NCBI GenBank assembly: GCA_963821525.1
Contig: CAWGED010000019.1
Location: forward strand, 544,001 to 608,000
Reading direction: 5' to 3'
From: an uncultured Gemmatimonadales bacterium
Lineage (GTDB): Bacteria; Gemmatimonadota; Gemmatimonadetes; Gemmatimonadales; GWC2-71-9
DNA length: 64,000 bases
Shown here: positions 23,451-60,088 of the stretch, piece by piece
Numbering within the stretch: the first letter of the stretch is position 1
Layout: each line of letters starts with the position of its first letter
The notes under the pieces: model-generated
What the model was told of the DNA's origin: nothing
Database searches by the model: none
The model's input: the letters and a program-made list of their open reading frames with translations, nothing else
Program-made: the position numbers and the translations under genes

Positions 23451-23492
23451 CAACCGGCCGGCCTTGTTATTCGAGCAGCACGGAGTAGAACC

Positions 23493-23729: not shown

Positions 23730-23768
23730 TCCTCATCTCTCGAACACGTTAGCGCAGGAGCAGCCTTC

Positions 23769-24056: not shown

Positions 24057-24095
24057 TTCCAAAACAGCGGGAACGGGAAGGAGAAGCAAGAGGGC

Positions 24096-24199: not shown

Positions 24200-24277
24200 C
24201 TTACACCGGTGCATTCCGCAGTTCCCTTTACTGTCCCCAATCACGTTCTACATCACTTCCACTCACGGTCTGTCCGC

Positions 24278-26080: not shown

Positions 26081-26098
26081 ATCCTACCTCTACTGCAG

Positions 26099-27213: not shown

Positions 27214-27367
27214 TTGGAAGCTTCCTTTATGAATGGGGGCCGAGTCCGGGCTGCAGGTGCTCGCTGCCGACCTGCCGGGGGATTACGTTAGCGTTCCACC
27301 GCCAGCGCCAATTTCTCAGATCTCAGGCTTAGGGCAAGGCCTGACGCTTCAGGACCAGGGGGATTCC

Positions 27368-29392: not shown

Positions 29393-29524
29393 GGCCAGAC
29401 CAGACCTGTGTCCGAAGCTTCGCAGCGCCTGGCGTAGGAGATCCTGAAGAATCTCCGGCGGCAGACGCCAGCTTTGTAAGCCGTCGCATCCTCGCTGGAC
29501 CAACCAACCTCCGAGAGGCTTTCA

Positions 29525-30001
29525 ATGGCCGTGCTTCGATCTGCTTTGCCTACCACTATGGTGGCCGTAATCGCGGTGGCTCTAGGCTGCGGCAGCGACA
29601 GCTCCACCGAGCCCGCCGACCCCGTCGCCGTCGCGCGCACCCAGACCTACGACCGCATCAACCAGCTCCGGGCCCTCGTCGCGCTCCCGCCCCTCACGGT
29701 GTGGACCGGCGGAGAAGACTGCGCCGATGGACAAGCCTTTGCCGATTACACGGCGGACACGCCGCACAGCACGTTCGGTCAGTGTGGAGAATCGGCCCAG
29801 AACGAATGTCCGGGCTGGCTCGCGATCTCCCAGATTCCGACCGACTGCTTGCAGGCGATGTGGGATGAAGGGCCGGGAAGCGATCCCCAGACCCACGGGC
29901 ACTACATTAACTTGACCAACACCTCCTACCACCAGGTTGCGGTCGGATTCTACGTATCGCCGACCAACGTCGTCTGGGCGACGATGAACTTCGCGCCGTG
30001 A
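29525..30001 (+). CDS. CAP/SCP-like domain lipoprotein
   Basis: ALGC lipobox plus INQLRA..ALPPL, GHYINL and VAVG motifs resembling CAP domains. Confidence 0.65.
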   Translation: MAVLRSALPTTMVAVIAVALGCGSDSSTEPADPVAVARTQTYDRINQLRALVALPPLTVWTGGEDCADGQAFADYTADTPHSTFGQCGESAQNECPGWLAISQIPTDCLQAMWDEGPGSDPQTHGHYINLTNTSYHQVAVGFYVSPTNVVWATMNFAP

Positions 30002-30106
30002 GCGCAGCTGGCGTTACCTCTCGTTCAGCGTAGGACCTCCTGGGAACTCCCTCGGCAGTGTTCCGGTCGAAGCGGGACCGCTTCCCTGGGCACTGACAGG
30101 CGTGAA

Positions 30107-30175
30107 TTGATCCATCGCCTCCCTCGGCGCTCTCTGACCGATACCGGATCGAGAGGGAGCTGGCTCAGGTATGGC
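30107..30175 (+). pseudogene. Degenerate orphan kinase 5' stub
   Basis: ...GCGCTCTCTGACCGATACCGGATCGAGAGGGAGCTGGCTCAGGTATGGC resembles [18 protein letters not shown] and ends at the MITE. Confidence 0.8.
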
Positions 30176-30178
30176 ATC

Positions 30179-30288
30179 CCGGTCCGTCGCTAAAGCGAGA
30201 CTGGCTATTGTCGCTCAAGCCACATGATTTGGGACACAGGAGTCACTTCAGTGACACCAGCCGAGTCGCGGCTTCAGCCGCGGACCGG
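30179..30288 (+). mobile_element. Non-autonomous IS200-like element (left + right hairpin ends, no tnpA)
   Basis: Bounded by CCGGTCCG...CGGACCGG. Internal hairpins match, in reverse complement, the ends flanking tnpA at 46081-46124 and 46579-46619. Confidence 0.75.
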
Positions 30289-30316
30289 CTGCTGGGCTCC
30301 AACCACCCGGAGCGCG

Positions 30317-32995: not shown

Positions 32996-33006
32996 CACCT
33001 GACACC

Positions 33007-35645
33007 TTGACCATCGACCTCGACTATCGACCGCCCTCGCCGACCGCTACCGCATCGAGCGGGAGCTGGGCCAGGGCGGCATGGCCACCGTGTATCTCGC
33101 CCAGGACCTGAAGCACGACCGAAGGTCGCGATCAAGGTGCTGCGTCCCGAACTCGCCGCCGTGATCGGGGCCGACCGGTTCCTCTCCGAGATCAAGACCA
33201 CGGCCAACCTGCAGCATCCGCACATTCTGCCGCTCTTCGACTCCGGGCGACGTGCCGAGTCGGCCGACCTCGTTCTACGTCATGCCGTTCATCGAGGGCG
33301 AGAGCCTCGCGACCGGCTCAATCGGGAGAAGCAGCTCCCGATCACTGATGCGGTACGGATCGCCACCGAAGTCGCCTCCGCCCTCGACTACGCCCACCGG
33401 CACGGCGTCATCCACCGCGACATCAAGCCGGAGAACATCCTGCTGCACGATGGACGCGCGCTGGTGGCCGACTTCGGAATTGCGCTGGCCGCGAGCAAAG
33501 CCGGCGGCAGCCGGATGACCGAGACCGGGATGTCGCTCGGCACGCCGACACTACATGAGCCCCGAGCAGGCCATGGGTCAGCGGGAAATCACCGCCCGGA
33601 GCGACATCTATGCCCTCGGTGCGATGACCTACGAGATGCTGACCGGCGAGCCGCCGTTCAGCGGACCCACCGCGCAGGCCATCGTGGCGAAGGTGCTCAC
33701 CGAGGAGCCGCGGCCGCTGATCCCCCGCCGCCACACCATCCCCCCCGACGTAGAAGAGGCCGTCCTGACCGCGTTGGAGAAATTGCCCGCGGATCGGTTC
33801 GATTCGGTCGCGGAGTTCGCCCGGGCGATCGGCGGCGATGGCAAAGGAGTGCGCTCGCCTGGAAAGCGAAGGCCGGTCCCGGCTCCCCGCCCATCCCGTC
33901 AGCTCTACCTGGCCCTCGCCCTCGGATCAGTCGCGCTGCTCGCGGCAGGCTTCTACGCCGGTTCGCGCCGGGGCGCGAGCGATTCACCCATCAAGGGACT
34001 CGGTGTCTCCACCAAGGTCACCTGGGATCCTGGGCTCGAGATCGAGCCGGCGCTCTCTCCGGATGGTAAATACCTGGCGTACGCCGCCGGCAACACGACC
34101 AGCCTGCGGATCTACGTGCGGCAAGTGAATGGCGGACGCCCGATTCCGCTCACCGAGGATTCGCTGGAGGTGCAGACCAATCCGTCCTGGTCGGGGGACG
34201 GCTCCCGCATTCTGTTCCTTTCCAACGGCGGGGTATTCAGCGCACCTTCCGCCGGCGGGGCGGCCCGACCGGAGATGCGCTCTCCACCGGGACTGCAGAT
34301 CATCTCCGCGGTCATGTCGCCCGATGGACAGACTCTCGGATATGCCGCAGGGGACTCGGTCTATCTGCGCGATGCGTCGGGGGCCGGCCGGCCTCTGGCC
34401 CGAGTGGCCGAGGCCTCGCTGTGCCAGTGGTCTCCCCGAGGCGAACTATTGGCCTGTGCGTCCGGGAATTCCTTCTACTCACGGGTCGGCGCGTTCTTCG
34501 GCAACCTGTCGCCCAGCCGGGTGACCGTGATCCGGGTGAAGGACGGGAGGACGACGACGGTAACTGACAGTACCTCCATCAATCAGAGCCCGGTCTGGTC
34601 TCCCGATGGGAAATGGCTGTACTACGTCTCGAGCAACCAGGGGCCGAGAGACGTCTTCGCGATTCGGATCGGGCGTGACGGCCGACCGATCGGCGCAGCG
34701 ACGCGGCTTACTGCGGGGCTCGGGGCCCAGTCAATCGCGCTGTCCGGAGACGGGCGCCGGATCGCGTACGCTGCATACGTGGGAACCTCGAACATCTGGT
34801 CGCTGCCGTTTCCGCCCAACGGCGAGACCCAGGCGAACGCGGTGCCGGTCACCAGCGGATCGCAGACCATCGAAGGCGGCCGGCCCTCGGTCGACGGCAC
34901 CTGGCTCTACTATCCATCAGATGTCAGTGGCAACTCCGAATTGTACCGGATGCGGCTGCCACACGGAGAGCCGGAGCAGTTGACCACCGATCCCAGCGAC
35001 GATTTCTCCCCCAAACCTTCGCCTGATGGCCGTGAGCTCGCCTTCCATTCGTGGCGCGCGGGCACCCGCGATATCTATGTGCTCCCGCTCGATGGTGGAC
35101 CGATACAGCAGGTAACCTCCACCCCACTCCAGGAGTCAGGGCCCGACTGGTCGCCCGACGGGCGAGCGCTGGCCTACGCCATGTTTGGCCAGCCGGGAGG
35201 CATTCGAGTCGTGCGGCGGAATACGGCCGGCGTTTGGGGCACGCCGGTGGAGCGAAGCTCGGCTGGGGTCTTGCCGGAGTGGTCTCCCGACGGGCGCTGG
35301 ATCGCTTATACCAGCACATTCCTGGGTGGCTCACTCTTCATCGTTGGTCCTGATTCTGGGGCGCCCCGGCTGGTCCTGGATTCCACCAATACCTGGGGCA
35401 TCCGGGCGCAGATGGCACATTGGAGCCGGGACAGCCGGACCCTCTATTTCAAGTCGGGGGATGCCAGGGGGAACGCCGCCTTCTGGGCCATTCCAGTGAC
35501 CGGAGGCACCCCGCGTCTGCTCATCCGGTTCGACGATCCCACTCGTCCCGCCTCTCGCCCCGAATGGTTCATCGGCAAAGGCCGGATGTATTTCGCGATT
35601 CAGGATCGGCAGAGTGACATCTGGGTGATGGAGGTGCGGAGGTGA
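33007..35645 (+). CDS. Ser/Thr kinase K7: kinase + TM + PD40 beta-propeller, several frameshifts in the kinase domain
   Basis: TTGACCATCGAC leader at 33007. ORFs 33137, 33252 and 33555 give kinase motifs and a propeller ending QSDIWVME. Confidence 0.88.
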
Positions 35646-35735
35646 AAGGGGACTTGTCCAACATCTCGCCGTCCCTCACCACCGCCCTCGCCGACCGCTA
35701 CATGATCGAGCGAGAGCTGGGTCAGGGGGGCATGG
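35642..35735 (+). pseudogene. Orphan kinase 5' stub ([21 protein letters not shown])
   Basis: Overlaps the K7 stop. Kinase similarity ends at GGCATGG, immediately before the MITE. Confidence 0.85.
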
Positions 35736-35739
35736 TGCG

Positions 35740-35851
35740 CCGGTCCGTCGCTAAAGCGACGACTCGGCTATTGTCGCTAAAGCGACGTGACTTGGGAGGT
35801 AGGAGTCACTTCAGTGACATCAGCCGAGTCGCGGCTTGAGCCGCGGACCGG
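35740..35851 (+). mobile_element. Non-autonomous IS200-like element (best-preserved copy)
   Basis: The left part matches the reverse complement of 46579-46619 at 36/41 nt. The right part matches the reverse complement of 46081-46124, including a compensatory stem change (GTCACTTCAGTGAC vs GTCGCTTCAGCGAC). Confidence 0.82.
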
Positions 35852-35883
35852 CAGACTATAGACTCGCAACACACGACCGGCGA

Positions 35884-38236
35884 TTGACCATCGACTCTCG
35901 ACTCGCCGCCGCCCTCGCCGACCGCTACCGGATCGAGCGGGAGCTGGGCCAGGGCGGTATGGCGACGGTGTATCTCGCCCAGGACCTGAAGCACGACCGC
36001 AAGGTCGCGGTAAAAGTGCTGCGACCCGAGCTGGCCGCGGTGCTCGGCGCCGAGCGATTCCTGGCTGAGATCAAGGTCACCGCCAATCTCCAGCATCCCA
36101 ACTTGCTGCCGCTCTTCGACTCGGGTGAAGCGGGTGGCTTCCTCTACTACGTCATGCCGTACGTCGAGGGAGAGACGCTGCGAAGCCGCCTCGAGCGCGA
36201 GCGGCAACTCCCGGTCGACGAGACCTCCCGCCTGATCACACTGATGGCCGGAGCACTCGACTATGCCCATGCCCGCGGGGTGATCCATCGCGATCTCAAG
36301 CCGGAAAACATCCTGCTCCAGGCCGGCCAGCCGGTGATCGCCGACTTCGGCATCGCACTGGCGGTGGCCCAGGCCGGCGGCTCCCGGGTTACCGAGACCG
36401 GACTCTCACTCGGCACTCCGCACTACATGAGCCCGGAGCAGGCGGCCGGCGAGCGCAACATCGATGCGAAATCCGACCAATACGCGCTCGCGGCGGTGAC
36501 CTACGAGATGTTGAGCGGCGAGCCGCCTCACACCGGCCCCACTGCCCAGGCCATCATCGCCCGGATGATGACGGAGAAGCCCCGGAGCCTGCAGGCGACC
36601 CGTTCCAACGTGCCGGTGGGGGTGGATCTCGCCGTCGGGCGGGCGTTGGCCAAGTCACCGGCCGACCGGTTCCCGTCCTGCGACGCCTTTGCCCAGGCGC
36701 TGGTTGCCGGCATGACCTCGGGTGCGGCTACTGTCGCCGACGCGGCTGTCCCACGGCGTCGCGGGCGATGGGTCGCCGCCGCCATCGCCCTGGTTGTGTT
36801 GGCTGGTGCGGCCCTGGGACTGACACGCTATCTGGGTGGAAGCGCCAGCGACCATTGATTCGATTGCGGTCCTCCCGCTCGACAACTATTCCGCCGACTC
36901 CACCCAGGACTACTTCGCCGAGGGGATGACGGATGAGCTGACCAGCGACCTCGCCATGATCAGCCAGTTGCGGGTCACCTCGCGCGGGTCGGCGATGCAG
37001 TTCAAAGGCAGGAATCGCCCGCCGACCCCGGAGATCGCGAAGGCCCTCGATGTCGACGCCGTTGTGGAGGGCTCAGTGTCCCGCTCCGGTGATCGGGTGA
37101 GGATCACCGCCCAGCTGATCGATGCCAGGGCCGACCGGCATCTTTGGGCCGAGACCTTCGAGCGCAATTCGAGCGACGTACTGGCACTCCAGGCCGAGCT
37201 GGCGTCGGCCATCGCCAGTGCGATCAACGTGCGGCTGACGCCGGGGGAGCAGTCCCGCCTCTCGGCTGCGCCGACCGTGGATCCGGGAGCCCACGACGCC
37301 TACCTCAAGGGGCGGTTCTTCTTCAATCGTCCGAGCGACGAGAACCTGCAGAAGGCCATCGTACAGTTCAACGAGGCGATCAAGCTGAGCCCGAACTTTG
37401 CCCCGGCGTATTCGGGGCTCTCGGATGCCTACACCTGGGCGGCCTACAACGAGGGATTCATTCGTGCCAGCGAAGCGAAGCCCCTGGCGAAAGCCGCCGC
37501 GGAACGGGCGGTTCAGCTCGACAGCCTGTCGGCGGAAGCCCACACCTCGCTGGGGGTCTACCTCGCTTGGTTCGACTACGACTGGGACCGAGGCGAGCGG
37601 GAACTCCGTCAGGCGATCGCCCTCAATCCCAGCTACGCCTACGCGCACGACCAGCTGAACCAGCTGCTGGGAATCATCGGTCGCTTCGACGAGGCGATTG
37701 CCGAGGGCCAACGGGCCATCGCGCTCGATCCACTGTCGCCCTCGATCCTGGAGGACCTGGCGACGACGTTGATCTACGCCGGCAAGGCGGCGTCGGCGCT
37801 GGAGCTTGCGAAAAAAGCCGCGGAGCTCGACCCGACCTTCTTCTTCCCGCCGGCTACGGAGGGGATTCTGGCGCTCCAGACCGGCAACTACCGCGAGGCC
37901 ATCGCGAAGTTTGAGCGCTCGCGGGCCCTGGATGCCCCGCCGTTCGTGACCGCCTACCTGGCGTACGCGTAGGGCATCTCCGGTGACCGCAGCCGCGCGA
38001 TGGCGACGCTCGGAGAACTCCAGAAGATGTCGCACGGGGAGGAGGCAGCCCCGTTCAACCTGGCACTGGTGTATCTCGGCCTCGGCGATCACGCGCGCGC
38101 GCTCGACTATCTCGAGCAGGCACATGCGGCCAGCTCGGAGATGCTGGTCTGGCTCAAGGTGGACCGGATCTACGATCCGCTGCGGTCGGAGCCGCGCTTC
38201 GTAGCCCTGATGAAGCGCCTGAACTTCGTCCAATGA
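35884..38236 (+). CDS. Ser/Thr kinase K8: kinase + TM + TolB_N-like + TPR; frameshift near 36836 and in-frame TAG at 37970
   Basis: MTIDSRLAAALADRY leader, HRDLKPEN, SIAVLPL and YFAEGMTDEL, TPRs, and a C-terminal DPLRSEPRF in the same frame after the TAG. Confidence 0.88.
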
Positions 38237-38336
38237 GGCGCACGGGCTGAGCGGCTTGAGGAATCGGCGGCTCGGCACTATTCGGCAATCGGCAATCGAT
38301 AACGGGCAATAGCCTGACAACCTGACACCTGACACC

Positions 38337-40619
38337 TTGACCATCGACCCTCGACTATCTTCCGCGCTCGCCGATCGCTACCGGCTCGAGCGGGAGCTGG
38401 GCCAAGGCGGCATGGCGACAGTGTATCTGGCCGAGGATCTCAAGCACCGACGAAAGGTCGCGGTGAAGGTGCTGAAACCCGACCTGGCCGCGGCACTCGG
38501 CGCTGAACGCTTCCTGCGCGAAATCGAGACAACCGCGAATCTCCGCCACCCTCACATCCTGCCGTTGCTTCGACTCGGGCAGGTCATGGCGTCGACGGAC
38601 GATCTTTCTCTTACTACGTGATGCCGCTGGTGGAAGGAGAGTCCTTGCGCGATCGACTGAAGCGGGAGACGCAGCTGCCAATCCCGGACACGGTGGCGAT
38701 CATTCCGCGAAGTAGCCGACGCGCTGGCCTACGCGCACGGTCGAGGCGTGATCCATCGCGATATCAAGCCGGAGAACATTCTGCTCGAACGGGGCCATGC
38801 CGTCGTCGCAGATTTCGGTATCGCGCGTGCGGTGAGCACTGCGGGCGGCGAGAACCTCACCCAGACCGGCATGTCGCGTGGGCACTGCCGGCCTACATGA
38901 GTCCGGAGCAGGCCCTGGCCGATCAATACGCTCGACGCCCGAAGCGACCAGTACAGCTCTGGGCTGCTGTCCTCTACGAGTGCCTGACCGGCGAGATCCC
39001 CTTCGCCGGCAGCGCCGGTGCCATGCTGGGCGCAGCGGATAACCGAGTGCACCACCGTCCGCGCGCAACAAGCGGCCGGAGGTTACCGCCCAGGTTGACC
39101 ACGCCCTGTCGTACGCGCATTGAGCCACCGATCCATCGGCGCGGTTTGCCTCCTGCCAGGAACTGGCCGCGGCGCTGGTGGCGCCACACTTCGCTCCCAG
39201 GCCGGGTGCGCGGCACTGGCGCGGCGAGGCATCGTTGTCCTGCCATTCGCCAACCGGAGTCCCGACGCCGACAATGAATACTTCAGCGACGGGCTCACCG
39301 AGGAGATCATCGCCGACCTCGCCCGGATCAAGGCGCTGAGTGTCATCTCCCGCACCTCGGCGATGCAACTCAAGGGGACCGACAAGAACGTGAAGGTCAT
39401 CGGCCGGGAACTCGGCGTGCGCTACGTGCTGGAAGGAAGCGTGCGGAAGGCCGGCTCGAGCCTCAGGATCACCGCACAACTGGTCGATGCCGACACCGAC
39501 ACACCGCTCTGGTCGGAGAAGTACAGCGGCACCATGGACGACGTGTTCGAGGTGCAGGAGCGGGTGTCCCGCGAAATCGTGAAGGCGCTCGGCGTGACGC
39601 TGAGTCCCGACGAGGACCGTCACCTGGCGCAACGGCCGATCGAGAACGTGCAAGCGTTCGAGCTGTACCTGCAGGCGCGTCTCGAGTTCCGGCGCTACGG
39701 CGCCTCGATCGACCACGGCTTGGCGTTGCTCAACCGGGCCATCGAGATCGAAGGCGAAACTCCGCCGCTTCAGGCACTCGTCGCCTGGGCCAAAGTCTCC
39801 CTGGTCCGCTCCGGCCATGCACCCGATGGGCGACCGCTGGACGAAGCCGAGGCGGTGGCGAAGGCCCTGATCCTGCGTGCTCCGGAGGCGCCCTACGGCC
39901 ACGCCCTGCTGGGATTCATCGGCTATGAGCGCTGCCGAATGGCCGATGCGGTGCGCCATCTGCGGGCCGCACTCGAACGCGAACCCAATGATGCCGATGC
40001 CTTTTTCTTTCTCGGCGTTTCCTACATCGCAGCCGGCCAGGAGGCTCTGGCTGCGGAGACAGCGGCTCGGCTGATGGCATCCGATCCACTTTCACCATTG
40101 GGGTGGATGTTGACCGGCGTCGTGCCGTGGTTCATGGGGCGGCTCGGGGAGGGATTGCCAAGCCTGGTCCGAGCGGTGGAGCTGGACCCCGAAAACCTCC
40201 TGGCGCGTTGGTGCCTTGGGTACACCCATACCCTCGTGGGAGATGTGGAGGCGGGGACGAAGCATGCCGAGGTGCTCCGAACCAAATCGCCGGACCTGCC
40301 TTACACTCGCCATCTTCTGGCCCTGGTCGCGGCACTCTCCGGCCAGAGCGAAGCCGCTCTCAAACACCTGGCATCGGTGGAAGGTCTCGACGGCCACCAC
40401 AAGATGCATCTGGCCGAGGCCTTCGCGATGGCCGGTGACATCGACCGGGCACTCTCCCTGCTCGAGGAGGCGGTCAACCAGGGCTTCCATCCCTATCGCT
40501 TCATCGCGGAGTATTGTCCCTTCATGGCTCCGCTCCGCGGATTGCCGCGGTTCGAGGCGCTTGCCGCCCGCGCCCAGCGACTCACCGCGGAGTTCGGTAT
40601 CGCGGGAGGTAACTCATGA
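38337..40619 (+). CDS. Ser/Thr kinase K9: kinase + TolB_N-like + TPR, multiple frameshifts, no obvious TM
   Basis: [15 protein letters not shown], kinase pieces in several frames, [10 protein letters not shown]...YFSDGLTEE, TPRs and PLRGLPRF. Confidence 0.85.
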
Positions 40620-40646
40620 GCGACGCGAGGCCCGACTCGCCGCATA

Positions 40647-40695
40647 CCGGTCCGTCGCTAAAGCGACGACTCGGCTATTGTCGCTAAAGCGACGT
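40647..40695 (+). mobile_element. Isolated left end of the IS200-like element
   Basis: CCGGTCCGTCGCTAAAGCGACGACTCGGCTATTGTCGCTAAAGCGACGT is identical to 35740-35788. Confidence 0.82.
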
Positions 40696-40714
40696 CTCAC
40701 ACACACGACGTCCA

Positions 40715-43374
40715 TTGACCATAGACCATCGACTATCGACCGCGCTGTCTGACCGCTACCGCATCGAGCGGGAGTTGGGCCAGGGCGGCATGGCCACGGT
40801 CTACCTCGCCGAGGATCTCCGAGCATGGCCGCAAGGTGGCTATCAAGGTCCTCCGCCCCGAGCTCGCCGCGTCGATCGGGGCCGAACGGTTTCTGCGGGA
40901 GATCAAGACGATCGCGAAGCTGCAGCATCCCCACATTCTCGGTCTCATTGATTCCGGAGAGGTCGAGGGGGCCGCGTACTACGTGATGCCCTTCGTGGAA
41001 GGGGAATCGCTGCGGGACCGGCTCGATCGCGAGAAGCAGCTCGCCATCACCGACGCGGTCCGCATAGCCACCGAGGTCGCCTCGGCCCTCGACTATGCGC
41101 ACCGCCACGGGGTGATCCACCGCGACATCAAGCCCGAGAACATCCTGCTGCACGATGGCCAGGCCCTGGTCGCGGACTTCGGGATCGCACTCGCCGTGAC
41201 TCAGGCCGGGCGGCACCCGGATGACCGAGACCGGCCTGTCGCTCGGCACGCCGCACTACATGAGCCCCGAGCAGGCGATGGGCGAGCGCGAGCTAACCCC
41301 GCGGAGCGATGTCTACGCCCTCGGTTGTCTGACCTTCGAGATGCTCGCTGGAGACCCGCCCTTCACCGGGCAGCACCGCACAAGCCATCGTCGCCAAGGT
41401 CCTGAGTGAGAAACCGCCTTCGATCCGGCGGCTGCGCGACCGGGTTCCCGAATCGGTCGAAGAGGCGGTGTTCGTCGCCCTCGAGAAGCTTCCGGCTGAT
41501 CGGTTCGCGACCGCCGCCGAGTTTGCTACAGCACTGAACGGAGGCGGCACCAGCGCCCCGCGCCACGGCAGCACCAGTGCGAGGAGCCGAATCGCCGAGC
41601 CGCCGAGCCGTCGAGTAGCATTCCTCCTGCTCCTCGCCCTCATGCTCGGCGCTGGCTGGTTCCTCGGGCGTCGAAATAGCAACGCCGCCGCAGGACCGCC
41701 GTCGAGTCGTCTCGCGATGTTGTCACCCGCTCTGGGAGGGTCTGGGGCCGGCGGATTGCATCGCCAGCTGACGCTCACGCCCGACGGTTCCGCGGTGGTC
41801 TATGTCGGCGCTTCGGTTCGACAGGGGGCGACCACACTGTGGATTCAGCGAATGGACCAGCTCGAGCCCGCGCTGATTCCTGGGAGCGAACTCCTTCTCG
41901 CCCCTCAAGTGTCGCCCGACGGACGATGGCTCGCGGCCCAGAACGTCGCCGGCGATGTCATCCGCTTCCCCATGCAGGGCAGCACTGCCCAGCCGGCCCC
42001 TGTGTCCCGCGGGTTCTCCTTCTTTGCCTGGGGTCCCGACGGGAGTCTGTGGATTACCCGGGCACCGTTCCGCACAGTCGAGCGGGTGGCCCAAGGAAGT
42101 GATTCACTCGAGGTGCGCATCAAGGACCTGAGTCGAGGCCAGTACATCCAACAGATACTCGATGATGGGAGGCGCGCTGTCGTAGTTCAGGGCGACGGAT
42201 CTTCGAGTGGCCCATGCTTCATTATGGACCTCGCAACCGGCCGGTTGACCCCGCTGATCGAAACGCCCATCACCGCCGCGCGCTATGCCGCGGGATATCT
42301 GATTTACGCCCGGCCGGATGGAACCCTCCTCGCCGCTCCGCTCGATGCGCGTCAGACTCGAATCACCGGCGAGGCAGTTACCGTCGCAGAGGGAGTCTCC
42401 GTGACCGGAGGCGGCGACGCCCAGTTCGCGGTCGCGCCCAGCGGCACCTTGGTCTACGTCCCCGAGGAGCCGAGGTCACTGGTGTTCGTCGACCGGTCCG
42501 GATCGGCGCGGTCGGCGACCGAAGCGCGCCAGAACTTCCATGCCCCCTCGTTTTCGCCCGATGGGCGCCGCGTGTCGGTGGATTTCGTTTCCGCCGACGG
42601 CCGGGACGTGTGGATCCTCGATCTGGACCAGGGGACGCTTTCCGTGGTACCTTCGATCGCGACGGACACGACGCGGTGTGGACCAGAGACGGAAAGCAGA
42701 TCACCTACACGTCGTACCGCTCCGGCGTCTTCGGGGTCTATCGGACCCGCCCGGGCAGCGGCGCGCCCGCCGAATCGCTGCTGGCCTCGCCGTCGCTGGG
42801 CTACACCGGCCAGTGGCTGCCCGACGGTAGCGGGCTCGTGACCGTGACCTTCGACCTTCAGCCCCGATCGGGTCAGGACATCGGCCTCGTCACCCACGGC
42901 GGCCACGGACCGATCGAGCCGATCGTCGCCACGCCGTATCGGGAGTTGTACCCCTCCCTTTCTCCCGATGGCCGCTGGCTGGCGTTCGTCTCCGATCAGT
43001 CGGGACAGAGTCGAGTGTATCTGCGCCCGCTCCAGGGAGACGGTGATCAAGTTCAGATCTCCCAGGGCAACGCCGATGAGCCGGTCTGGGGGCCGGATAG
43101 CCGGGAGCTGTTCTATCGCGCCACCGATACCGGGCGACCCGAGCTGATTGCGGCCAGGCTCGAAACCACTCCGACCCTTCGAGTCCTTGAGCGGCGCCCG
43201 CTCTTCTCGGTCGAGAACTACGTACCGGCCACGCCACACGCCAGCTATGCCATCTCACCCGATGGCAAGACCTTCGTGATGGTCCAGCGCAACCCGGCGA
43301 GCCGCATCATGGTAATCCAGAATCTGCCGGGTCTGGTGGGCCGGCTGCGCGACGCGCAGAGTGCGCCCCATTGA
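40715..43374 (+). CDS. Ser/Thr kinase K10: kinase + TM + beta-propeller, several frameshifts
   Basis: MTIDHRLSTALSDRY leader. ORFs 40836, 41221, 41468 and 42214 stitch into kinase + TM + SPDG repeats. Confidence 0.87.
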
Positions 43375-43398
43375 GTCGGGGCCTCAGCCGCGAACTAG
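43373..43398 (+). mobile_element. Degenerate right-end remnant of the IS200-like element
   Basis: GAGTCGGGGCCTCAGCCGCG matches the MITE right end GAGTCGCGGCTTCAGCCGCG at 18/20 nt (21/26 when extended). Confidence 0.55.
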
Positions 43399-43445
43399 CG
43401 GCATATCGGCAACCGGCAATCACCTGACCCCGACACCTGACACCC

Positions 43446-45868
43446 TTGACCATCGACCATCGACTATCGACCGCGCTGTCTGACCGCTACCGCATCGAGC
43501 GGGAGCTGGGCCAGGGCGGCATGGCTACGGTGTACCTCGCACAGGACCTCAAGCACGATCGCAAAGTGGCCGTGCAAGCTGCTGCGTCCGAGGAACTCGC
43601 TGCGTCGCTGGGGCAAGGAGCGCTTCCTCCGCGAGATCAAGGTCGCGGCCAATCTGCAGCATCCGCACATCCTGCCGTTGTATGATTCGCGGTGAGGCCG
43701 ACGGGGTCTGCCTGTACTACGTCATGCCGCTATCGTCGAAGGCGCAGTCGCTCCGCGACAAGCCTGCACGAAGGAGAGGCGAGCTGCCGATCGGCGGACG
43801 CGGTGCGCATCCTGCGCGAGGTCGCCGACGCGCTGACCGTAAGCCCACGGTCACGGCGTGGTTCACCGCGACATCAAGCCGGAAAACGTGATGCTGCGCG
43901 GCCGGCACGCCGTGGTGATGGACTTCGGCGTGGCTAAGGCGCTCAGCGCGGCCCGGGCGGCAGTCAGCTCACCACGATCGGCGTCGCCCTCGGGCACGCC
44001 GACCTACATGGCGCCGGAGCAGGCAGTGGCCGATCCCCACGTGGATCATCGACGGAAGGCGCGACCTCTACGCGCTTCGGCGTGGTGGCGTACGAGCTGC
44101 TGGCGGGACAGCCGCCCTTCACCGGGACCACCCAGCAGGAGATCCTGGCGGCGCACGTGACCGCGGACGCGCCGAGCCGGTCGCCAACCACCGGCCGGCC
44201 ATGCCGCCGGCGCTGGCCGCCGCGGTGATGCGGTGCACTGGAGAATCGGCCCGCCGATCGGTGGCAGAGCGCCGAGGAGTTGATCACCCAGCTCGAATCG
44301 GTCTTGACCCGAGCGGCGGGATAACGCCGACGGCAACGTCTGCCGGTCACCGCGGTTCCCGCACCAGGGCTCCCGTCGCACGCTCGCAGCGTTCGCGGTC
44401 GGGGCGATTCTGCTGGTGGCCGGGGTCGAGGCGTGGCGGGTTGACCCACCACGCCGGGGAGAATCGTCCGGTGTTTCCTCCTCCGGGATCGCCAGGCGCG
44501 TCGGCTGTCTTTGCCTTTGCGAGTCGCGGAGCGCGGGACGACCTCGGATGCGTACCTGGGCGACGGCATGGCGACCGACTTGACCAACGACGCTGGCCGG
44601 AATGTGACCGGCCTCCATGCGTATCCGCGCGAACGTTCGCGCCTTCGCCCTGCGGGGCGAAGACCGCCCGCGAAGATGGGGCGGCGCTCACGGCGGACGC
44701 CATGGTGTCGAGGGTACCGTCGGCAAAGTCGAGAACCGGCTGCGGGTGACGGTGTCAGCTGGTGAACGTCGCGGATGAGGCGGTATCTCTGGAGTCAGCG
44801 ACTACGACGTGAGCGCGAAAAGGATCTCTACGCCCTCCAGGATTCGGCCGCGGCCGCGATCGCGATCGGCGCTAGGGGAAGTCGGTCTCGGCCGGCGAGA
44901 CGATCCGGCTCTCGTCGGCGCACCGCACCGCGAACCCGGAGGCCTACGATCTCGTCCTGCGCGGCCAGTTCCTGACGGAGCAGAACACCGAGGCCAGTCT
45001 CCAGCAGGCCATCGCGCTGTTTGAACGAGCCGCCGCTCTCGATTCCACGTACGCCGATCCGTGGAACGGGATCGCTCAGGCCTGGATCTTCCTCGCCGAT
45101 ACCTACCTGGCCCCGCGCGCGGCGGTTCCTCCGATGTCTGCCGCGATCGACAAGGCTCTGGCGCTCGATCCCAGGTCGGCGTGGGCGCACGCACTCAAGG
45201 GAAGCCTGCTCTCCGCGTATCTCCGTGACTACGCGGCCGGGGAACGGGAGTATCTCGCGGCAATCGCCCTGGACAGTACCACGACATTCGGCGGCGACTA
45301 TGGCTGGGTGCTGCATTCGCGCGGCCTGGAACCGATTCGGCATTGGCGGTTTTTCGCCGGGCGCGGCGGCACAATCCGTTTGCCTTCGCCCCGCTGAATG
45401 GAATCGTGGCCGTCATGAGTAATGCGGGGATGCTGGACAGCGCCATCAGTGCTTTGCCGCGCCCTCCAACAGATGGGCCCACACTCATGCGGAGATCAGC
45501 TGCTGATGCAGATGGGCCGGGCACGAGAGGTGGTCGTCGCGTGGAAGGCGAAGCCCTCCACCACACCGGATGAGACGCTGGACCTGGCCGAGGCGTTGGC
45601 GCTGGCCGGCGATCCCGCGGGCGCGCGACGCGAGCTCTCGGCGGCGCTCAGCGCCGCGGGGTCTCGCTATGTCCGCGAGGACAACGTCGCGGCCGTCTAC
45701 CTCGCCCTGAAAGACACCGCCAGGACACTGGAATGGCTCGGACGGGGCCTCGATGCCCAGGCGGCGAACATGGCTACGATCAATCGCAATTGGAGATTCA
45801 AGCCGCTGCATGGCTACCCGCCCTTCGACGCCATCGTGAGAAAGGCGGGGTTGCAGCCGTCGCCATGA
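43446..45868 (+). pseudogene. Ser/Thr kinase K11: kinase + TolB_N-like + TPR, very heavily frameshifted (pseudogene or low-quality sequence)
   Basis: Fragments in many frames: [57 protein letters not shown] pieces and PLHGYPPF. Confidence 0.78.
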
Positions 45869-45993
45869 ACCGACTGGCAGGGCGGTGAGGGGAGCAGTCG
45901 ATAGTCGATGGTCGATGGTACCGCACCGTACGGGAACGTAGTGTTTGCGCCGGTGTCCCAGGATTTGACCCCATATCCATGGACCACCGATCA

Positions 45994-46077
45994 TTGACCA
46001 TCGACCATCGACTATCGACCGCGCTGTCTGACCGCTACCGCATCGAGCGGGAGCTGGGCCAGGGCGGCATGGCCACG
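45994..46077 (+). pseudogene. Orphan kinase 5' stub ([28 protein letters not shown])
   Basis: The first 80 bp are identical to 43446-43525. It ends at the right-end hairpin of the IS200-like element. Confidence 0.9.
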
Positions 46078-46523
46078 CTTTCCGCGGCTGAGAGCCGCGG
46101 CTCGGCTGATGTCGCTGAAGCGACGGGCCGGGCGGTCCAACCCGGTATGGCCTCATCGGGATGGTGCGTGTGCTGATGGCGCACATAGGCTGCCGCCACA
46201 CCCCGTTGGCGAGGACTCACACTGATCACGCTGTATCCTTTGGCCCATCGCAGGGCGGGGTCCTGCAGTGGCGCGCCACGATTGATCAGGGTAGCGGTGC
46301 CGCCCTTCATGCGTTGCAGCAGTCGGGGAATGACGGTAGAAGGATGCAGGCGCACCAGCAAATGCAGGTGCGTGGTCACGATACCGAGCTCGAGTACCCG
46401 CGCCCGCTCCTGCCGAGCAATAATGGGGAGATGCTTCCAGAGGTACTCGGCACGGGGCCGATCTATGGTCGGCTGACGATCACGGGTGGTCCAGACGATA
46501 TGGACCAGGAGCTGATGATGCAT
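46035..46523 (-). CDS. tnpA: Y1 HUH transposase (IS200/IS605 TnpA)
   Basis: VHIVWTTRDR, HUH motif HLHLL, MKG, W..GY.V.SVS and catalytic YVRHQ (YxxxQ). Confidence 0.9.
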   Translation of the reverse strand: MHHQLLVHIVWTTRDRQPTIDRPRAEYLWKHLPIIARQERARVLELGIVTTHLHLLVRLHPSTVIPRLLQRMKGGTATLINRGAPLQDPALRWAKGYSVISVSPRQRGVAAAYVRHQHTHHPDEAIPGWTARPVASATSAEPRLSAAESVAMPPWPSSRSMR

Positions 46524-46620
46524 ACATCAGGATCGACGCATCCCTCGATTGCGGCGGTACCATTCCAACGCACCGCAGGTCGCTTTAGCGACCTCAGCCG
46601 AGCCGTCGCTTCAGCGACGA
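46078..46620 (-). mobile_element. IS200/IS605-family (tnpA-only) element with subterminal hairpins
   Basis: tnpA is flanked by hairpins CCGCGGCT-GAG-AGCCGCGG and GTCGCT-GA-AGCGAC (46082-46124), and by GTCGCTTTAGCGAC / CGTCGCTTCAGCGACG (46579-46619). Exact ends are uncertain. Confidence 0.8.
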
Positions 46621-46647
46621 GCGCGGGCGGCGATCCTGAGAATCACG

Positions 46648-49350
46648 ATGCTTGACTCGCTCTCCCGCCTTACCGCCGCCCTCGCCGACCGCTACCGCAT
46701 CGAGCGGGAGCTGGGCCAGGGCGGCATGGCCACGGTGTATCTCGCCCAGGACCTGAAGCACGAGCGCAAGGTCGCGGTCAAGGTGCTGCGACCGGAGCTC
46801 GCGGCGGTGATCGGCGCCGAGCGATTTCTGAGCGAGATCAAGACCACGGCGAACCTGCAGCATCCGCACATTCTGCCCCTGTTCGACAGTGGGCGGACGG
46901 GCGGCAACGGGGACGAGCGGGCGGACGACTTCCTGTTCTACGTCATGCCGCTGATCGAGGGCGAGTCGCTCCGCGACCGGTTGAATCGCGAGAAACAGCT
47001 CCCGATTGGGGATGCGCTCCGCATCGCAACCGAAGTCGCGAGTGCGCTGGACTATGCCCACCGCCACAACGTCATCCATCGCGACATCAAGCCCGAGAAC
47101 GTCCTGCTGCACGACGGGCGCGCGCTGGTGGCCGACTTCGGAATTGCACTGGCCGCGAGCAAGGCGGGCGGCAGCCGGATGACGGAGACCGGGATGTCGC
47201 TCGGTACTCCGACCTACATGAGCCCCGAGCAGGCGATGGGAGAACGGGAGATCACCGCCCGCTCCGACGTCTACGCCCTGGGCGCCATGACCTACGAGAT
47301 GCTGCTGGGGGAGCCGCCGTTCACCGGGCCCACGGCGCAATCGATCGTGGCGAAGGTGATGACCGAGAAGCCGGCTTCGCTCATCTCGCGGCGGGATCGG
47401 ATCTCACCGGCCGTCGAGGATGCGGTGCTGACCGCGCTGGAGAAGCTGCCGGCCGACCGGTTCGGGAGTGCAGCGGAGTTTTCGGCGGCGTTGAATGGGG
47501 ATAGCGGCTCGGCGACTCGGCGGCTCGGCGGCTCGGCCCCGCAGCCCGAGGCTCGGCGGGGCGTAGGCCGGCCCGCGCTTTATGCGATGCTGGTCATCAC
47601 CTCGCTGGCCGCGGTCTTCTTCGCCTGGCGCGCCGCGCATCACCCCGCCGGCCCGGTCACCCGACTCACACTCGACCTGCCGGAACTCAGGGTCAATCAC
47701 CTCAGCTACTACGGGAGCGCCCTCGCGGTGGCTCCCGACGGCTCGTCGCTGGTTTACGTCACCGAGAGTCCGGGCACGCCTACCCGGCTCATGGTGCGGG
47801 AACGCGGGAATCTTACGCCGCGGCTGCTCGAAGGGACCGACGGAGCGGATGGGCCGTTCTTTTCGCCCGACGGCCGCTGGGTGGCTTACACCGCCGCCAA
47901 GAAGATCTTCAAGGTGCCGGTCGCAGGGGGGACTCCGGTGCTCGTCGCGGATGCGGCGGCCAATGAGCTGGCCAGCGGAACCTGGCTGGACGACGGCCGG
48001 ATCGTCTTCACCAATCAGTCCTTCGAGATCCTTACCGTGCCGGCGGCCGGGGGGCAGGTTTCCCGGGTCGTACCACCACCCGTCAGCTTCGGCTGGGCCT
48101 TTCCCACCGCGCTGCCGGTCAAGGATGTCATCCTGATCACCGAGTGCAGCAACAACTGCTCGCGGATGAACCTGTTGGCCATGAATCTGAAAACGCTGGC
48201 GCGGGACACCATCCTTCCCAACACCTCACGGGGCTTCTACCTCCCCACCGGTGATCTCCTCGCGGTGCAGCAGGATGGCAACGTGGTGGCGGGACATTTC
48301 GATCTCGGCAAGCTGCGATATACCGATCCACCCGTCGTGGTGCAGAGCGCAGTCCAGCTCGAACTCGGCATCACGCCCGAGCTGGCCGTGGCAAATGACG
48401 GGACGCTCATCTACCTCGCCGCCAATCAGACGGGAACCGATGCGACCATCGCACGGGTGGATCGGACCGGCAAGGCTCGGGTGCTCGATCCCGACTGGAC
48501 GGCGCGGGTCAGCAGCCTGGCCCTCTCGCCCGACGGGCGCCGCGTCGGGATCAGCACCCTCGAGCAGTCCGGCAATGTGCTCTGGATGAAAGAGCTCGAC
48601 GCCGGCCCCCTGACCCAGCTCAGCTTCGACGGCACCATCAACTACCGCCCGTCGTGGCGCCCCGACGGACGCAGCATCAGCTTCACCTCGGACTTCAAGG
48701 GACTGGCCTCGTACCTGTACACGATGCGGGCGGATGGCAGCGACAAGCCGGAGCGAGTCCTGCCCAACGAACCGCTCCAGGTCGATGAAGCGGTCTGGTC
48801 ACGGGATGGCCGCTGGCTGGTGTACCGGACCGGCGTCACCGGAGGCTCGCGCGACATATACGCCCGGCAGCTCTCGGGCGACACCAGCCGGATCACCGTC
48901 GCGGCCGGCGCCGCCGATGAGTACATGGCGGCGCTTTCGCCCGACGGCCGCTGGATCACCTACGTCTCGGTCGAATCAGGCAAGGAGGAGGTCTACGTCC
49001 GGCCTTTTCCCGAGACCAGCAGGGCGCGGTGGCAGGTCTCCGCGGCGGGCGGATCCAATCCCGCCTGGTCGCACTCGGGACGTGAATTGTTCTATGTCGA
49101 CCGGGCCGACAGCCTGATCGCGGTGAGCGTGACCGGTACCACCGACTTCCAGATCGGCCCCAGGCGCGCGCTGTTCAGCACCCGGCCATTCCTGCTGCTG
49201 CCATTTCACCGCACGTACGACGTGTTCCCCGACGATCAATCGTTCCTGCTGCTCAAGCGTCCGTTCACCGCCACCACCGAGGCCAATCGGCTGACGGTCG
49301 TGCTGAACTGGTTCAGTGAGGTGAAGGCGAAGGTGAGACAGGGGAGGTGA
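46648..49350 (+). CDS. Ser/Thr kinase K12: kinase + TM + beta-propeller
   Basis: Intact ORF with all kinase motifs, a TM, SPDG repeats and C-terminal LTVVLNWFSE. Confidence 0.94.
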   Translation: MLDSLSRLTAALADRYRIERELGQGGMATVYLAQDLKHERKVAVKVLRPELAAVIGAERFLSEIKTTANLQHPHILPLFDSGRTGGNGDERADDFLFYVMPLIEGESLRDRLNREKQLPIGDALRIATEVASALDYAHRHNVIHRDIKPENVLLHDGRALVADFGIALAASKAGGSRMTETGMSLGTPTYMSPEQAMGEREITARSDVYALGAMTYEMLLGEPPFTGPTAQSIVAKVMTEKPASLISRRDRISPAVEDAVLTALEKLPADRFGSAAEFSAALNGDSGSATRRLGGSAPQPEARRGVGRPALYAMLVITSLAAVFFAWRAAHHPAGPVTRLTLDLPELRVNHLSYYGSALAVAPDGSSLVYVTESPGTPTRLMVRERGNLTPRLLEGTDGADGPFFSPDGRWVAYTAAKKIFKVPVAGGTPVLVADAAANELASGTWLDDGRIVFTNQSFEILTVPAAGGQVSRVVPPPVSFGWAFPTALPVKDVILITECSNNCSRMNLLAMNLKTLARDTILPNTSRGFYLPTGDLLAVQQDGNVVAGHFDLGKLRYTDPPVVVQSAVQLELGITPELAVANDGTLIYLAANQTGTDATIARVDRTGKARVLDPDWTARVSSLALSPDGRRVGISTLEQSGNVLWMKELDAGPLTQLSFDGTINYRPSWRPDGRSISFTSDFKGLASYLYTMRADGSDKPERVLPNEPLQVDEAVWSRDGRWLVYRTGVTGGSRDIYARQLSGDTSRITVAAGAADEYMAALSPDGRWITYVSVESGKEEVYVRPFPETSRARWQVSAAGGSNPAWSHSGRELFYVDRADSLIAVSVTGTTDFQIGPRRALFSTRPFLLLPFHRTYDVFPDDQSFLLLKRPFTATTEANRLTVVLNWFSEVKAKVRQGR

Positions 49351-49352
49351 GT

Positions 49353-49484
49353 GGAGACGGAGACGGGAGACGGGAGACGGAGGACGGGGGACGGGAGACG
49401 GGGCGGACGGGCGGACGGAGGGCGGACAGGGCGGACCGACGAACCGACGAACCGACGAACCGACGAACCGACGAACCGACGAAC
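49353..49484 (+). repeat. Compound short tandem repeats: GGAGACG-like, GGCGGAC-like and (ACCGACGA)x6
   Basis: Read directly between the K12 stop and the K13 leader. The perfect octamer run is 49435-49482. Confidence 0.92.
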
Positions 49485-49519
49485 GTTAACGGCTGACGGC
49501 ATCTAACAACCAACGACCA

Positions 49520-52194
49520 TTGACCATCGACCTCGACTCACGACCGCTCTCGCCGACCGCTACCGCATCGAGCGGGAGCTGGGCCAGGGCGGCATGGCCA
49601 CGGTGTACCTCGCCGAGGATCTCAAGCACCGGCGCAAGGTGGCGATCAAGGTGCTCCGGCCGGAACTCTCCGCCGTGATCGGAGCGGACCGCTTCGTGCG
49701 CGAGATTCAAACCATCGCGGCACTGCAGCATCCCCACATTCTCGGCCTGATCGACAGCGGCGAAGTGAACGGCACGGCGTACTACGTGATGCCCTTCGTC
49801 GAAGGCGAAAGCCTGCGGGATCGGCTCAACCGGGAGAAGCAACTTCCCATTCTCGATGCGGTGCGTATCGCGACCGAAGTGGCCTCGGCCTTGGACTACG
49901 CCCACCGCCATGGAGTCATCCACCGCGATATCAAGCCCGAGAACATCTTGCTGCACGATGGCCAGGCCCTGGTGGCCGACTTCGGCATTGCCATCGCCGT
50001 CTCCACGGCCGGTGGCAACCGAATGACAGAGACGGGAATGTCGTTGGGGACCCCGCATTACATGTCGCCCGAGCAAGCCATGGGCGAGCGCACCATCACC
50101 GCCCGCTCCGATGTGTACGCCCTGGGCTGCGTGCTCTACGAGATGCTCTCGGGAGACCCGCCGTTCACCGGATCGACCGCTCAGGCCATCGTGGCGCGGG
50201 TGATGACCGAGGCGCCCCGTTCCCTCCTCACCCAACGACGCACGATTCCGCCGCACGTCGAGGCGGCGGTGTTCACCGCGCTCGAGAAATTACCGGCCGA
50301 CCGGTTCGAGGGGGCCAGGGCATTCTCCGAGGCGCTGAGTGATTCCCGCTTCACCGCGACCGGGACAACCTCCAGCGCAGCGGTCGCGAGGGTCAAACCA
50401 AAGCTGGATCGCAGGTGGCTCTACACCGGGCTGGCCCTCGCCATGCTGCTGCTCGTCGTCGCGGCGGCCGGGTGGCTGCGTCCGATGCCGGGCGCCCCGA
50501 CCACGCGTCAGCGTGTGCTGCTCTGGCAGCATCCGGTCGGGCAATTCCTGACGCCGGGCTCGGAGCGAATCATGACCCAGGCCGCCATTGCGCCCGACGC
50601 CTCGAGCATCGTCTTCAGCGACCGGAGCAACGACTCGACCCCGCTCATGCGGAAGCTCCGGGATGAGACCCAGGCGAGACCGATTGCCGGGACGGAGGGA
50701 GGGCTGTCGCCGTTCTTCTCCCCGGACGGCAAGTGGGTCGGCTACATGACCATCGATGGTAGGCTGCGGAAGGTTCCGGTCGAGGGTGGAGGTGCCATCA
50801 CCCTCGCCACCGATGGCGACAACACCTACCCCATCGCCACCTGGCTGGATGACTGGACGATCGTGTATCCGGACGCCTCTCAGCGGCTACGCCGGATACC
50901 TGGGGACGGCGGTCCCAGCCGTCCAGTTCGGAGCGACACTACGCCGGGACGCCAGAACATTGGGACAATCGCGCCACTACCCGGCAGTCACGGGGTGTTG
51001 TACAGCGCCTGTCCCGGGAACTGTGCCATCGAGTCGTCGCTCTACGTGTTCGACTTTGCGGCCGACAGTGGCTGGCTTCTCGTCTCCGGTGCGGCCGGGG
51101 GCTGGTATGCGCCCACGGGTCACCTGCTGTACACCGATCGGGCAGGAGGATTGTTTGCTGTCGGGTTCAATCCCAAGACACTCAAGATTACTTCGGGCGC
51201 CATTCCCATCATAGACGATGTGGCGCCGGACGAATTCACCCTGTCGGCCTCCGGCAGCGCGCTCTACTCGCTCAATGTCGACCGTGGCGGCGGGGCGGAA
51301 CTGGTGCTGGTCTCGCTCGATGGGAAGGCCGAACCACTCGATTCGAGCTGGCGGGCGGACTTCGCGTATCCGGCAATCTCACCCGATGGTAAGGCACTGG
51401 CCGTGAGTGTGCGGGACGGTCCGACCCAACTCTGGATTCGGCGGTCCGACGGAACCCGGCAGAAGCTGACGCAGACCGGCTCGGTGAACTGGCGGCCCTT
51501 CTGGACCCCCGACGGACGATCGGTCGTCTTCCTCTCGGATGTGAGGGGCGGGGGAAGCCAGGACGCCTATGATATCTATCAGATGAGGGTCGACGGGAGC
51601 GGGCCGGCCCAGCTGCTTCTGCATCACAGCTCCGGGCTCTGGGAAGCCGAAGTGTCACGGGATGGGGAATGGCTGGTGTTTCGTTCCGATGAAGCCGGGG
51701 CCGATGCCAACATTCGGGCTCGGCGCCTTCACGGAGACACGGCCCTGGCGCCGGTGGTGGTCGACAAGAACACCAGCACCATGATTTCACTCTCCCCGGA
51801 CGGCCGCTGGCTGGCCTACGGATCCGATGCGACCGGACGGCGGGAGGTCTACGTCACGGCGTTCCCATCGGCGAGCTCGACTCATCTAGTCTCCCGCGGC
51901 GGCGGCATCGAGCCCCGCTGGTCGCACAGTGGCCGGCAACTGTTCTTCAAGAGCGGCAATCAGATGATGGCGGTGGACGTCACCCCCGGGACGACGTTTG
52001 TGGCCGGCACTCCTCGCCCACTCTTCTCCCTATCCGGTTACCGCTCGGCCCGAAATCGGCAGCAGTACGATGTGGCACCCGACGACAAGCACTTCGTGAT
52101 GATCCGGGAAAGGACCACTGACACCCCCACCAATGTGGTGTATGTCGAGAACTGGTTCGAGGAGCTCAAGGCGAGGGTGAAGGCGAAGCATTGA
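49520..52194 (+). CDS. Ser/Thr kinase K13: kinase + TM + beta-propeller
   Basis: ORF 49594-52194 extends upstream to ALADRY. The TTG leader at 49520 is 1 nt out of frame. C-terminal VVYVENWFEELK. Confidence 0.92.
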
Positions 52195-54541: not shown

Positions 54542-54596
54542 ATCGTGCCTTCATCCGCGGACGAGCAGACTCACGACTCACGACTCACGACGACCA

Positions 54597-57270: not shown

Positions 57271-57328
57271 CCATCGACCAGCGACTTTCGACCGCCCCTT
57301 CGGCGCCAAAGCATCCTCTGGAGTCAGG

Positions 57329-59959: not shown

Positions 59960-60088
59960 TCGTGGGTCGTGGGTCTTGAGTCACGACCAACGACCACGGT
60001 CAAATTGTCCCGCGTTTCCGGAGCCTGAGCGGTCCGCGCTCTGGCGTGTTCTGCACTGCCCGCCCATCTTTGCGGCCACCAGCCACTC

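Follow-up and report, generated by a model that had tools for sequence, protein, structure and literature searches.

Gene exchange at the 5' heads of a tandem receptor-kinase array in Gemmatimonadales

Exchange of gene bodies behind a constant 5' part has been described for the C-terminal displacement of Rhs proteins and for the effector-immunity arrays of Vibrio cholerae's type VI secretion system (T6SS), where it is attributed to homologous recombination, partly paired with illegitimate joints (PMC8125069, PMC5361080); this and the following comparisons with cited systems refer to the portions of those papers that were consulted. In the vpma genes of Mycoplasma agalactiae and the vsp genes of M. 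bovis, conserved 5' regions hold the crossover and unrelated bodies follow, in a system with a linked tyrosine recombinase (Xer1), DNA inversion and one shared promoter (PMC2268961). Here, we describe a tandem array of genes for Hanks-type Ser/Thr receptor kinases in an uncultured Gemmatimonadales bacterium (genome G000), most of which lies in the 64,000 nt analysed (positions 544001-608000 of contig C19, hereafter the window), and compare it with the congener genomes G001, G002, G003 and G004. The kinase genes begin with a short similar segment, the head. Whole genes were swapped, gained and lost by related species mainly at this head, and the route was most likely ordinary homologous recombination rather than a dedicated integration enzyme.

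Integron cassette arrays are long and co-directional, with variable content and order at a fixed locus and with units common to different species. The kinase array differs from them in that neither intI nor attC sites adjoin it and the junction is the genes' own coding sequence. Its products resemble PknB/PknD-like Hanks-type receptor kinases in their Pkinase domain, transmembrane (TM) helix and PD40 or TPR tail, but about 20 of them stand in one tandem array with exchangeable heads. With the Rhs and T6SS arrays it shares a constant 5' and a variable 3' part, recombination within the former that swaps the latter, the lack of a dedicated integrase and modules common to strains or species. The orphans of those arrays, however, are 3' ends and no gene but the first is complete, whereas nearly all units of the kinase array are full genes, its orphans are 5' heads of at most 70 nt, the anchoring segment measures 44 nt and the products are signalling receptors, not toxins (PMC8125069, PMC5361080). 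Orphan 3' modules behind a single full gene were not found, the headless matches among array kinases being two doubtful ones. As in vpma and vsp, a conserved 5' segment contains the crossover, but there is no linked recombinase, all units point in one direction and the site lies inside coding sequence (PMC2268961). No paper on these kinase arrays was found in the literature searched, most subscription papers being outside its reach.

Crossover at the heads and a homogenised core

The whole array covers about 76 kb and holds 21 full kinase domains and 6 head-only stubs, of which 18 and 5, respectively, lie inside the window (Table 1). Intact open reading frames (ORFs) of the array score above the Pfam cut-off for PF00069 (Pkinase) and carry a TM helix and a PD40 or TPR tail; neither of the two array kinases tested reached an NCBIfam equivalog cut-off. 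Of 41 related genomes, 39 matched the head (tallies include the unpublished G018 and G152, on which no claim rests). Positions in the head are counted from an anchor, which for the gene K11 places 0 at 43464, the TTG start at -18 and the end of an 80-nt segment at +61. From +18 to +61 runs a 44-nt core, 15 codons of kinase coding sequence and the longest near-identical stretch among the array paralogues, which occurs in exact form at seven sites in the 76-kb array and at none in the remaining 4.26 Mb.

Comparison with G003 places the crossover at the head. Behind its orthologue of the gene K10, G003 carries the identical 80 nt and then, from the next base (window 43526), a different body: K11 and its counterpart show a single mismatch over -300 to +61, differ beyond that for the first time at +62 and are 75% identical thereafter. 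The body of K10 is 99.4% identical to the G003 orthologue, whose frame stays open over 879 codons. The gene K12 is the mirror case, being different from G003 up to +17 and identical from +19, and its body is common to G003, G002 and G004 under different heads, with the switch at +3 to +18. The body of K11 was not found in the four congener genomes, its 3' part being matched by contigs of the runs X4 and X5. These switches at K11 and K12, together with the ends of the stubs, bear out the proposal of a preliminary description of this DNA that the head is the point at which bodies are exchanged, supplying the start codon and the first kinase strand. Of 30 cross-species orthologue pairs, 16 differ at nine or more of the 36 nt preceding the core and mostly at 0-3 sites within it (ungapped counts, inflated by a 1-nt indel in at least one pair). 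Conversion-like patches of 13-21% divergence lie deeper in the kinase (+62 to +450) in 7 of the 30 pairs, so the head is the main exchange site but not the sole one; their variable length fits conversion tracts. These 30 pairs and the named ones are used here instead of a wider comparison, in which many apparently shared bodies were the same upstream gene with a diverged spacer.

The order of units between the same flanking genes differs among G000, G003, G004 and G001, as illustrated by B10<B14<B17<B21<B22 in G000 and B17<B21<B10<B22<B14 in G004. Units of 96-99% identity are shared by G000 with G003 (five units, flanks 90% identical) and with G004 (two units, flanks 85-86%), and this greater likeness of units than of flanks points to transfer between species.

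Synonymous sites in G000, G002, G003 and G004 are homogenised in the core only, at the DNA level. Where array paralogues of G000 have the same residue, they use the same codon at a frequency of 0.77 in the core, where codon usage predicts 0.43. The excess in synonymous-codon identity is 0.60 in the core of G000 (0.59 without K10 and K11) and 0.05-0.28 in 14 other windows along the genes. The corresponding core values are 0.53 in G003 (other windows 0.02-0.38), 0.49 in G004 (0.11-0.31), 0.60 in G002 and 0.67 in G023, and the excess among the 35 dispersed kinases of G000 is only 0.07.

A common head allele, not a private duplication

The preliminary description started from an 80-nt segment that opens K10 and K11 and recurs behind K11, each time before different content. 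The identity is as described, with no mismatch between the K11 head and the downstream stub and two between these and the K10 head. A 15-nt variant within the segment occurs at just three sites on the two strands of the window (40742, 43473 and 46021), and also in three heads of G003. What follows does differ: a kinase with a PD40 propeller in K10, a kinase with a TolB-like/TPR part in K11 (read from the sequence, the gene being frameshifted) and a minus-strand Y1_Tnp gene behind the stub. These copies are less exceptional than they appear, the 80 nt being the top of a continuum: among the 300 pairs of 25 array heads, other pairs reach exact runs of 65, 59, 58, 58, 55, 53, 53 and 52 nt. About 27 of the 80 nt belong to a heptamer repeat found genome-wide, two 14-mers of which have 20 and 12 copies outside the array, and the diagnostic part of the allele comes to only about 9 nt. 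Across G000, G003 and G004, 13 starts have a head with at most six mismatches to it, and many different bodies follow them. The segment is a common head allele and not a private duplication.

In many heads, the native ATG start seems, from the sequence, to have been replaced by a TTG derived from the heptamer repeat, without an obvious Shine-Dalgarno site. An inverted pair of heptamer repeats at 45894-46022 has a 26-bp stem (z = -7.1) whose right arm is the TTG start and first codons of the head; another such pair lies at 2151-2320. Exact-pattern scans of metagenome contigs with a 42-nt head variant and a 31-nt arm of the repetitive extragenic palindromic (REP)-like element gave no matches and are uninformative.

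The segment had also been taken to be duplicated whenever a unit is integrated, and to act as an att-like crossover site. Duplication at each integration was not borne out. Near-identical adjacent heads make up 2 of 23 cases in G000 (at most 2 nt apart), 2 of 22 in G003 (at most 4 nt) and 1 of 14 and 0 of 10 in the two arrays of G004; most adjacent heads differ by 9-40 nt, and genome-specific inserts lack matching flanking heads. Permutation of adjacent heads gave p = 0.07 in G000, 0.01 in G003, where they are slightly more alike than chance, and 0.52 and 0.72 in G004. The crossover at the head stands, but the adjacent-head counts largely refute the strict att reading as a general rule; no recombinase was found nearby, and 7 of 30 orthologue pairs have patches that reach +250 to +450. 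Three tyrosine recombinases are encoded in G000, one on C5, one at C19:839 kb (XerD/XerC-like) and an integron integrase on C3 (L028, G000:C3:37989-38591, above cut-off for TIGR02249) that is unlinked to the array. Neither a tyrosine or serine recombinase near the array (C19:546-621 kb) nor a resolvase anywhere in G000 was found, in a genome that is 81% complete. A simple scan for attC-like box pairs, run on two arrays of 66-75 kb, gave only two on either strand of each, and their placement was not constant. An integron was considered and rejected, as no integrase adjoins the array and unit boundaries show no regular attC pattern.

Stubs, REP-like hairpins and a Y1 transposase

All arrays examined together contain 134 full kinase domains, 29 head-only remnants and 2 doubtful headless matches. 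Within 70 nt of the anchor end 23 of the 29 remnants, a tally in which some stubs are orthologous and some loci overlap in origin. In G000 and the four congeners, a 115-nt hairpin doublet (z = -6.2) and then a new head come after the stubs that end at +61 to +64; some stubs end at +37 to +47 without any REP. Complete REP-like elements in G000 are confined to the array, partial copies occurring on C5, C12 and C14, and matches to the palindrome, with both strands counted, number 14 in the array and 8 elsewhere; an abundant genome-wide REP family of the kind that accompanies REPtrons was not found in G000. A complete stand-alone element precedes 2 of the 21 full kinase starts in G000 and tnpA precedes one, and most boundaries are without REP. 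The base directly 5' of the stand-alone element takes all four values, like the third base of an Ala codon in intact kinases.

Behind K11, the order is stub, inverted REP-like arm, Y1 transposase gene, second arm and K12 head. The transposase scores above the cut-offs for PF01797 (Y1_Tnp) and NF033573 (IS200/IS605; 59.1 bits against 55) and reaches 21.6 bits with the RAYT profile NF047646, below its cut-off of 80; subterminal hairpins lie on both sides of the gene (z = -3.5 and -2.5). Its Y---Q--HH motif matches the signature of subclass 1.2, a low-copy group said not to behave like insertion sequences (IS), a likeness of motif only (PMC6006769). A short Y1 HUH enzyme, flanking inverted hairpins and stand-alone doublets are features that the locus shares with the TnpA of IS200/IS605 and with REPtrons and bacterial interspersed mosaic elements (BIMEs). 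Unlike those of REPtrons and BIMEs, its hairpins are rare in the genome and lack the GTAG tag, and placement at a kinase boundary with a stub and a replacement start is not described for any of these systems in the consulted portions of the reports (PMC6006769, PMC3333891, PMC3733652).

Homologues of the transposase occur in 117 of 401 family genomes, and its relatives come from Gemmatimonadales and other Gemmatimonadota records. Among the best 30 loci, nine, including the top seven, have a kinase start within 450 nt beyond the 5' end of the gene, and four of these nine also have a stub, which ends at +66 to +71. A tree of 40 transposases places all 13 that adjoin a kinase start or stub in one subclade of 16 (93/90 support), with none among the other 24. 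The association was assigned by hand from the locus survey, meaning an adjacent kinase start only for L053, L055, L093 and L096 and weak stub-like matches for L046; L061 (<90 aa) was dropped from the tree. The HUH motif and the catalytic Y are kept in all 13, which share a constant orientation and come from the genera g1, g13, g16 and g74. Genome G304 repeats the layout of stub, REP, tnpA, REP and start, with a transposase of 87% protein identity. In G001, G003 and G004, the only homologues are distant (49-55%) and lie on other contigs, and in G002 the query found no match, yet the arrays of all four are shuffled. Between types, the REP-linked stub junctions (+61 to +70) are several bases apart, and no guide/target tetranucleotide could be assigned.

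L021 (G000:C12:49440-49781), a second member of this broad transposase family, has related palindromes and does not adjoin a kinase, and two more IS200-like copies in G000 lie on C12 and C1 with other flanks. In one genome, two transposase modules 12 kb apart (L049 and L060) occupy different unit boundaries with the same junction type.

Table 1. Features of the kinase array in the window, by position
Feature	Position	Strand	Remarks
Array of Hanks-type Ser/Thr kinase genes in tandem, all in one direction (kinase with PD40 propeller or TPR tail)	2310..64000	+	Runs on to ~C19:620800
Stub ending at +41	12718..12776	+	Next comes a block of unrelated genes; G003 and G004 have a full kinase in that place
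Stub + complete REP-like element	30118..30289	+	Ahead of K6
Stub + complete REP-like element	35675..35855	+	Ahead of K8; long hairpin, z = -6.2; orthologous copy in G003
Half REP-like hairpin element	40647..40695		Directly upstream of K10 head; 49/49 nt match to left arm of element at 35739
K10	40715..43374	+	Kinase + TM + PD40 propeller
K10 head	40715..40794	+	Heptamer-derived TTG start + core; 2 mismatches to the other two copies
K11	43446..45868	+	Kinase + TPR-type body
K11 head	43446..43525	+	44-nt core at 43482-43525; crossover boundary with G003 at 43525/43526
Left arm of heptamer-repeat inverted pair	45894..45919	-	Right arm 45997-46022 = first codons of the stub
Head-only stub	45994..46082	+	80 nt identical to K11 head; kinase homology stops at ~+70
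Y1 (HUH) transposase gene, IS200/IS605 family	46035..46523	-	Y---Q--H motif; frame ends inside the stub
REP-like arm, 3' side of tnpA	46081..46124		Inverted relative to stand-alone elements
REP-like arm, 5' side of tnpA	46576..46619		
K12	46648..49350	+	Kinase + propeller, ATG-type head
Stub with internal deletion after +45	63564..63660	+	

Several neighbouring features complete the picture of the locus. The first kinase gene lies between two pairs of multicopper-oxidase-like ORFs (295-6756), and each pair may be a single frameshifted gene; an 8-nt unit is repeated in about 30 tandem copies directly 3' of the stop of the second kinase gene (12395-12620). The block at 12777-15157, which follows a stub, contains two minus-strand ORFs with signal-peptide-like starts and no Pfam match, and downstream of them a Trans_reg_C/BTAD gene overlaps a kinase start. 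Within the array but beyond the window, a PP2C-like phosphatase ORF and a threonine-dehydratase-like ORF, both read from motifs, flank a stub (L026, G000:C19 ~613400-615400) and occupy other array positions in G004 and G001. Rfam gave no matches within the window.

Probable homologous exchange and its alternatives

We consider it fairly probable that homologous exchange centred on the core moves core-to-core units, with conversion keeping the core uniform and the hairpin and transposase modules riding along. RecA-type homologous recombination with DNA from sister chromosomes or related species would cross over mostly in or just before the core, and the mobile unit would extend from one core to the next, comprising kinase body, spacer and next head. 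Units could thus be replaced, gained, lost and reordered while each body retained a working start, and gene conversion during exchange would homogenise the core, which would then stay the preferred site. Small body-less units (a stub and a REP-like hairpin, with or without the Y1 transposase gene, plus a new head) would take the same route, and would be harmless because they bring a replacement start. The place of the crossover, the uniformity of the core, the reordering of units, their occurrence in more than one species, the excess of head-only remnants and the link with the transposase are observed. We infer RecA as the enzyme, transformation as a source of DNA, the feedback between conversion and site preference, and the order of events at K11 and the stub; recA, comEC and dprA are present in G000.

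Several points weigh against this account. Stretches of 44-62 nt are short for efficient RecA exchange. Homologous recombination alone explains neither how stubs first formed nor why REP-linked stub junctions, of at least three types, lie without exception at +61 to +70. Protein constraint sets in where the sharp boundary near +17 lies, and fast N-terminal evolution could explain part of this boundary. The stubs are not independent, several being orthologous, and long headless remnants may be purged faster. Finally, the head peak in synonymous identity is weak in G001 (0.32, under the 0.38 of its HRD window) and not head-specific in G019 and G027.

A Y1 transposase guided by the REP-like hairpins might instead nick single-stranded DNA at the core end and excise and integrate modules with a replacement head, its nicks making the core the recombination hotspot of the array, in trans where an array has no tnpA. 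We hold this to be unlikely. The restriction of the kinase-adjacent transposases to one subclade, with catalytic residues and orientation kept, the clustering of REP-linked junctions and the occurrence of all four bases before the stand-alone element agree with it, as does the behaviour of Escherichia coli TnpAREP, which cuts at a distance on either side of REP and carries out strand transfer (PMC3333891). Yet most boundaries lack REP, the arrays of G001-G004 were shuffled with distant unlinked homologues or none, the junctions vary by several bases between types, stubs without REP end at +37 to +47 and no guide or target has been assigned. An integrase-free, integron-like receptor-kinase repertoire, in which a domesticated Y1 HUH transposase, led by its own hairpins, nicks the end of the 44-nt core within kinase coding sequence, inserts replacement-start modules and makes the core the site at which whole sensor genes are shuffled, also between species, is a doubtful proposition as well. 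It is improbable, too, that the core is kept by selection on the RNA or DNA itself, as a bulged hairpin just past the start codon, or by recent common descent, with passive shuffling. The core (43470-43520, + strand) does fold as a bulged hairpin, the K11 head reaching -20.4 kcal/mol (z = -2.65), and for the commonest core the value is -19.0, where 2000 synonymous recodings average -11.1 and 2% of them fold as low. However, the 96 distinct heads (mean fold -13.2) show essentially no compensatory changes, many variants break pairs and the dispersed paralogues are without the synonymous excess.

Very little recommends the view that the segment is a genuine att site which a dedicated recombinase, such as the unlinked integron integrase on C3 acting in trans, duplicates whenever a unit integrates. 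The heads on both sides of K11 are identical, a few stubs come close to the head that follows them (4 and 3 mismatches) and adjacent heads in G003 are slightly more alike than chance, but the distances between most adjacent heads, the inserts without matching heads, the p values of the other three arrays, the scarcity of attC-like pairs, the lack of a recombinase near the array in the 81% complete genome and the patches deeper in the kinase all count against it. An assembly artefact is very unlikely, be it a wrong join at the repeat or the overwriting of neighbouring heads with one head during polishing. Relative to G003, 21 extra bases were counted in K9 (38568-39393), and relative to run contigs, many 1-nt insertions in K11 (~43570-44900); the heads, which polishing could have tidied, are clean; the interval 45868-46100 is bridged by no independent contig among the listed run contigs, although absent cover proves nothing, and the K11 body was not found in the four congeners. 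One X5 contig joins the end of K11 (45875) to a head like that at 49543, which may represent the order of another strain or another organism. Against an artefact, the same 80 nt follow the same K10 in G003, a separate assembly of another species, run contigs join the end of K10 to the head (X2, 42622-43473; X5, 42251-43523), the layout around tnpA recurs in G304 and the core is homogenised in G002, G003 and G004. The frameshifts in K10 are probably consensus errors, and the extra bases in K9 and K11 look like low-coverage long-read consensus errors rather than decay; their dense clusters in these two genes may flag units that only some members of the sequenced population carry. For frameshifts, comparisons with orthologues and run contigs were used, counts against the nearest paralogue being noisy (intact K4 scored 17).

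These results place the exchange point of a large and variable sensor-kinase repertoire within 44 nt and indicate that entire receptor genes pass from one species to another in a soil lineage that is abundant and mostly uncultured. The clade of Y1 transposases at kinase boundaries offers a concrete substrate, hairpin plus core, for the question of which role low-copy TnpA-like enzymes that are not IS play in their hosts. Toxins and surface antigens are known to turn over in the manner of cassettes; in this array, signalling receptors do so, and without an integrase.

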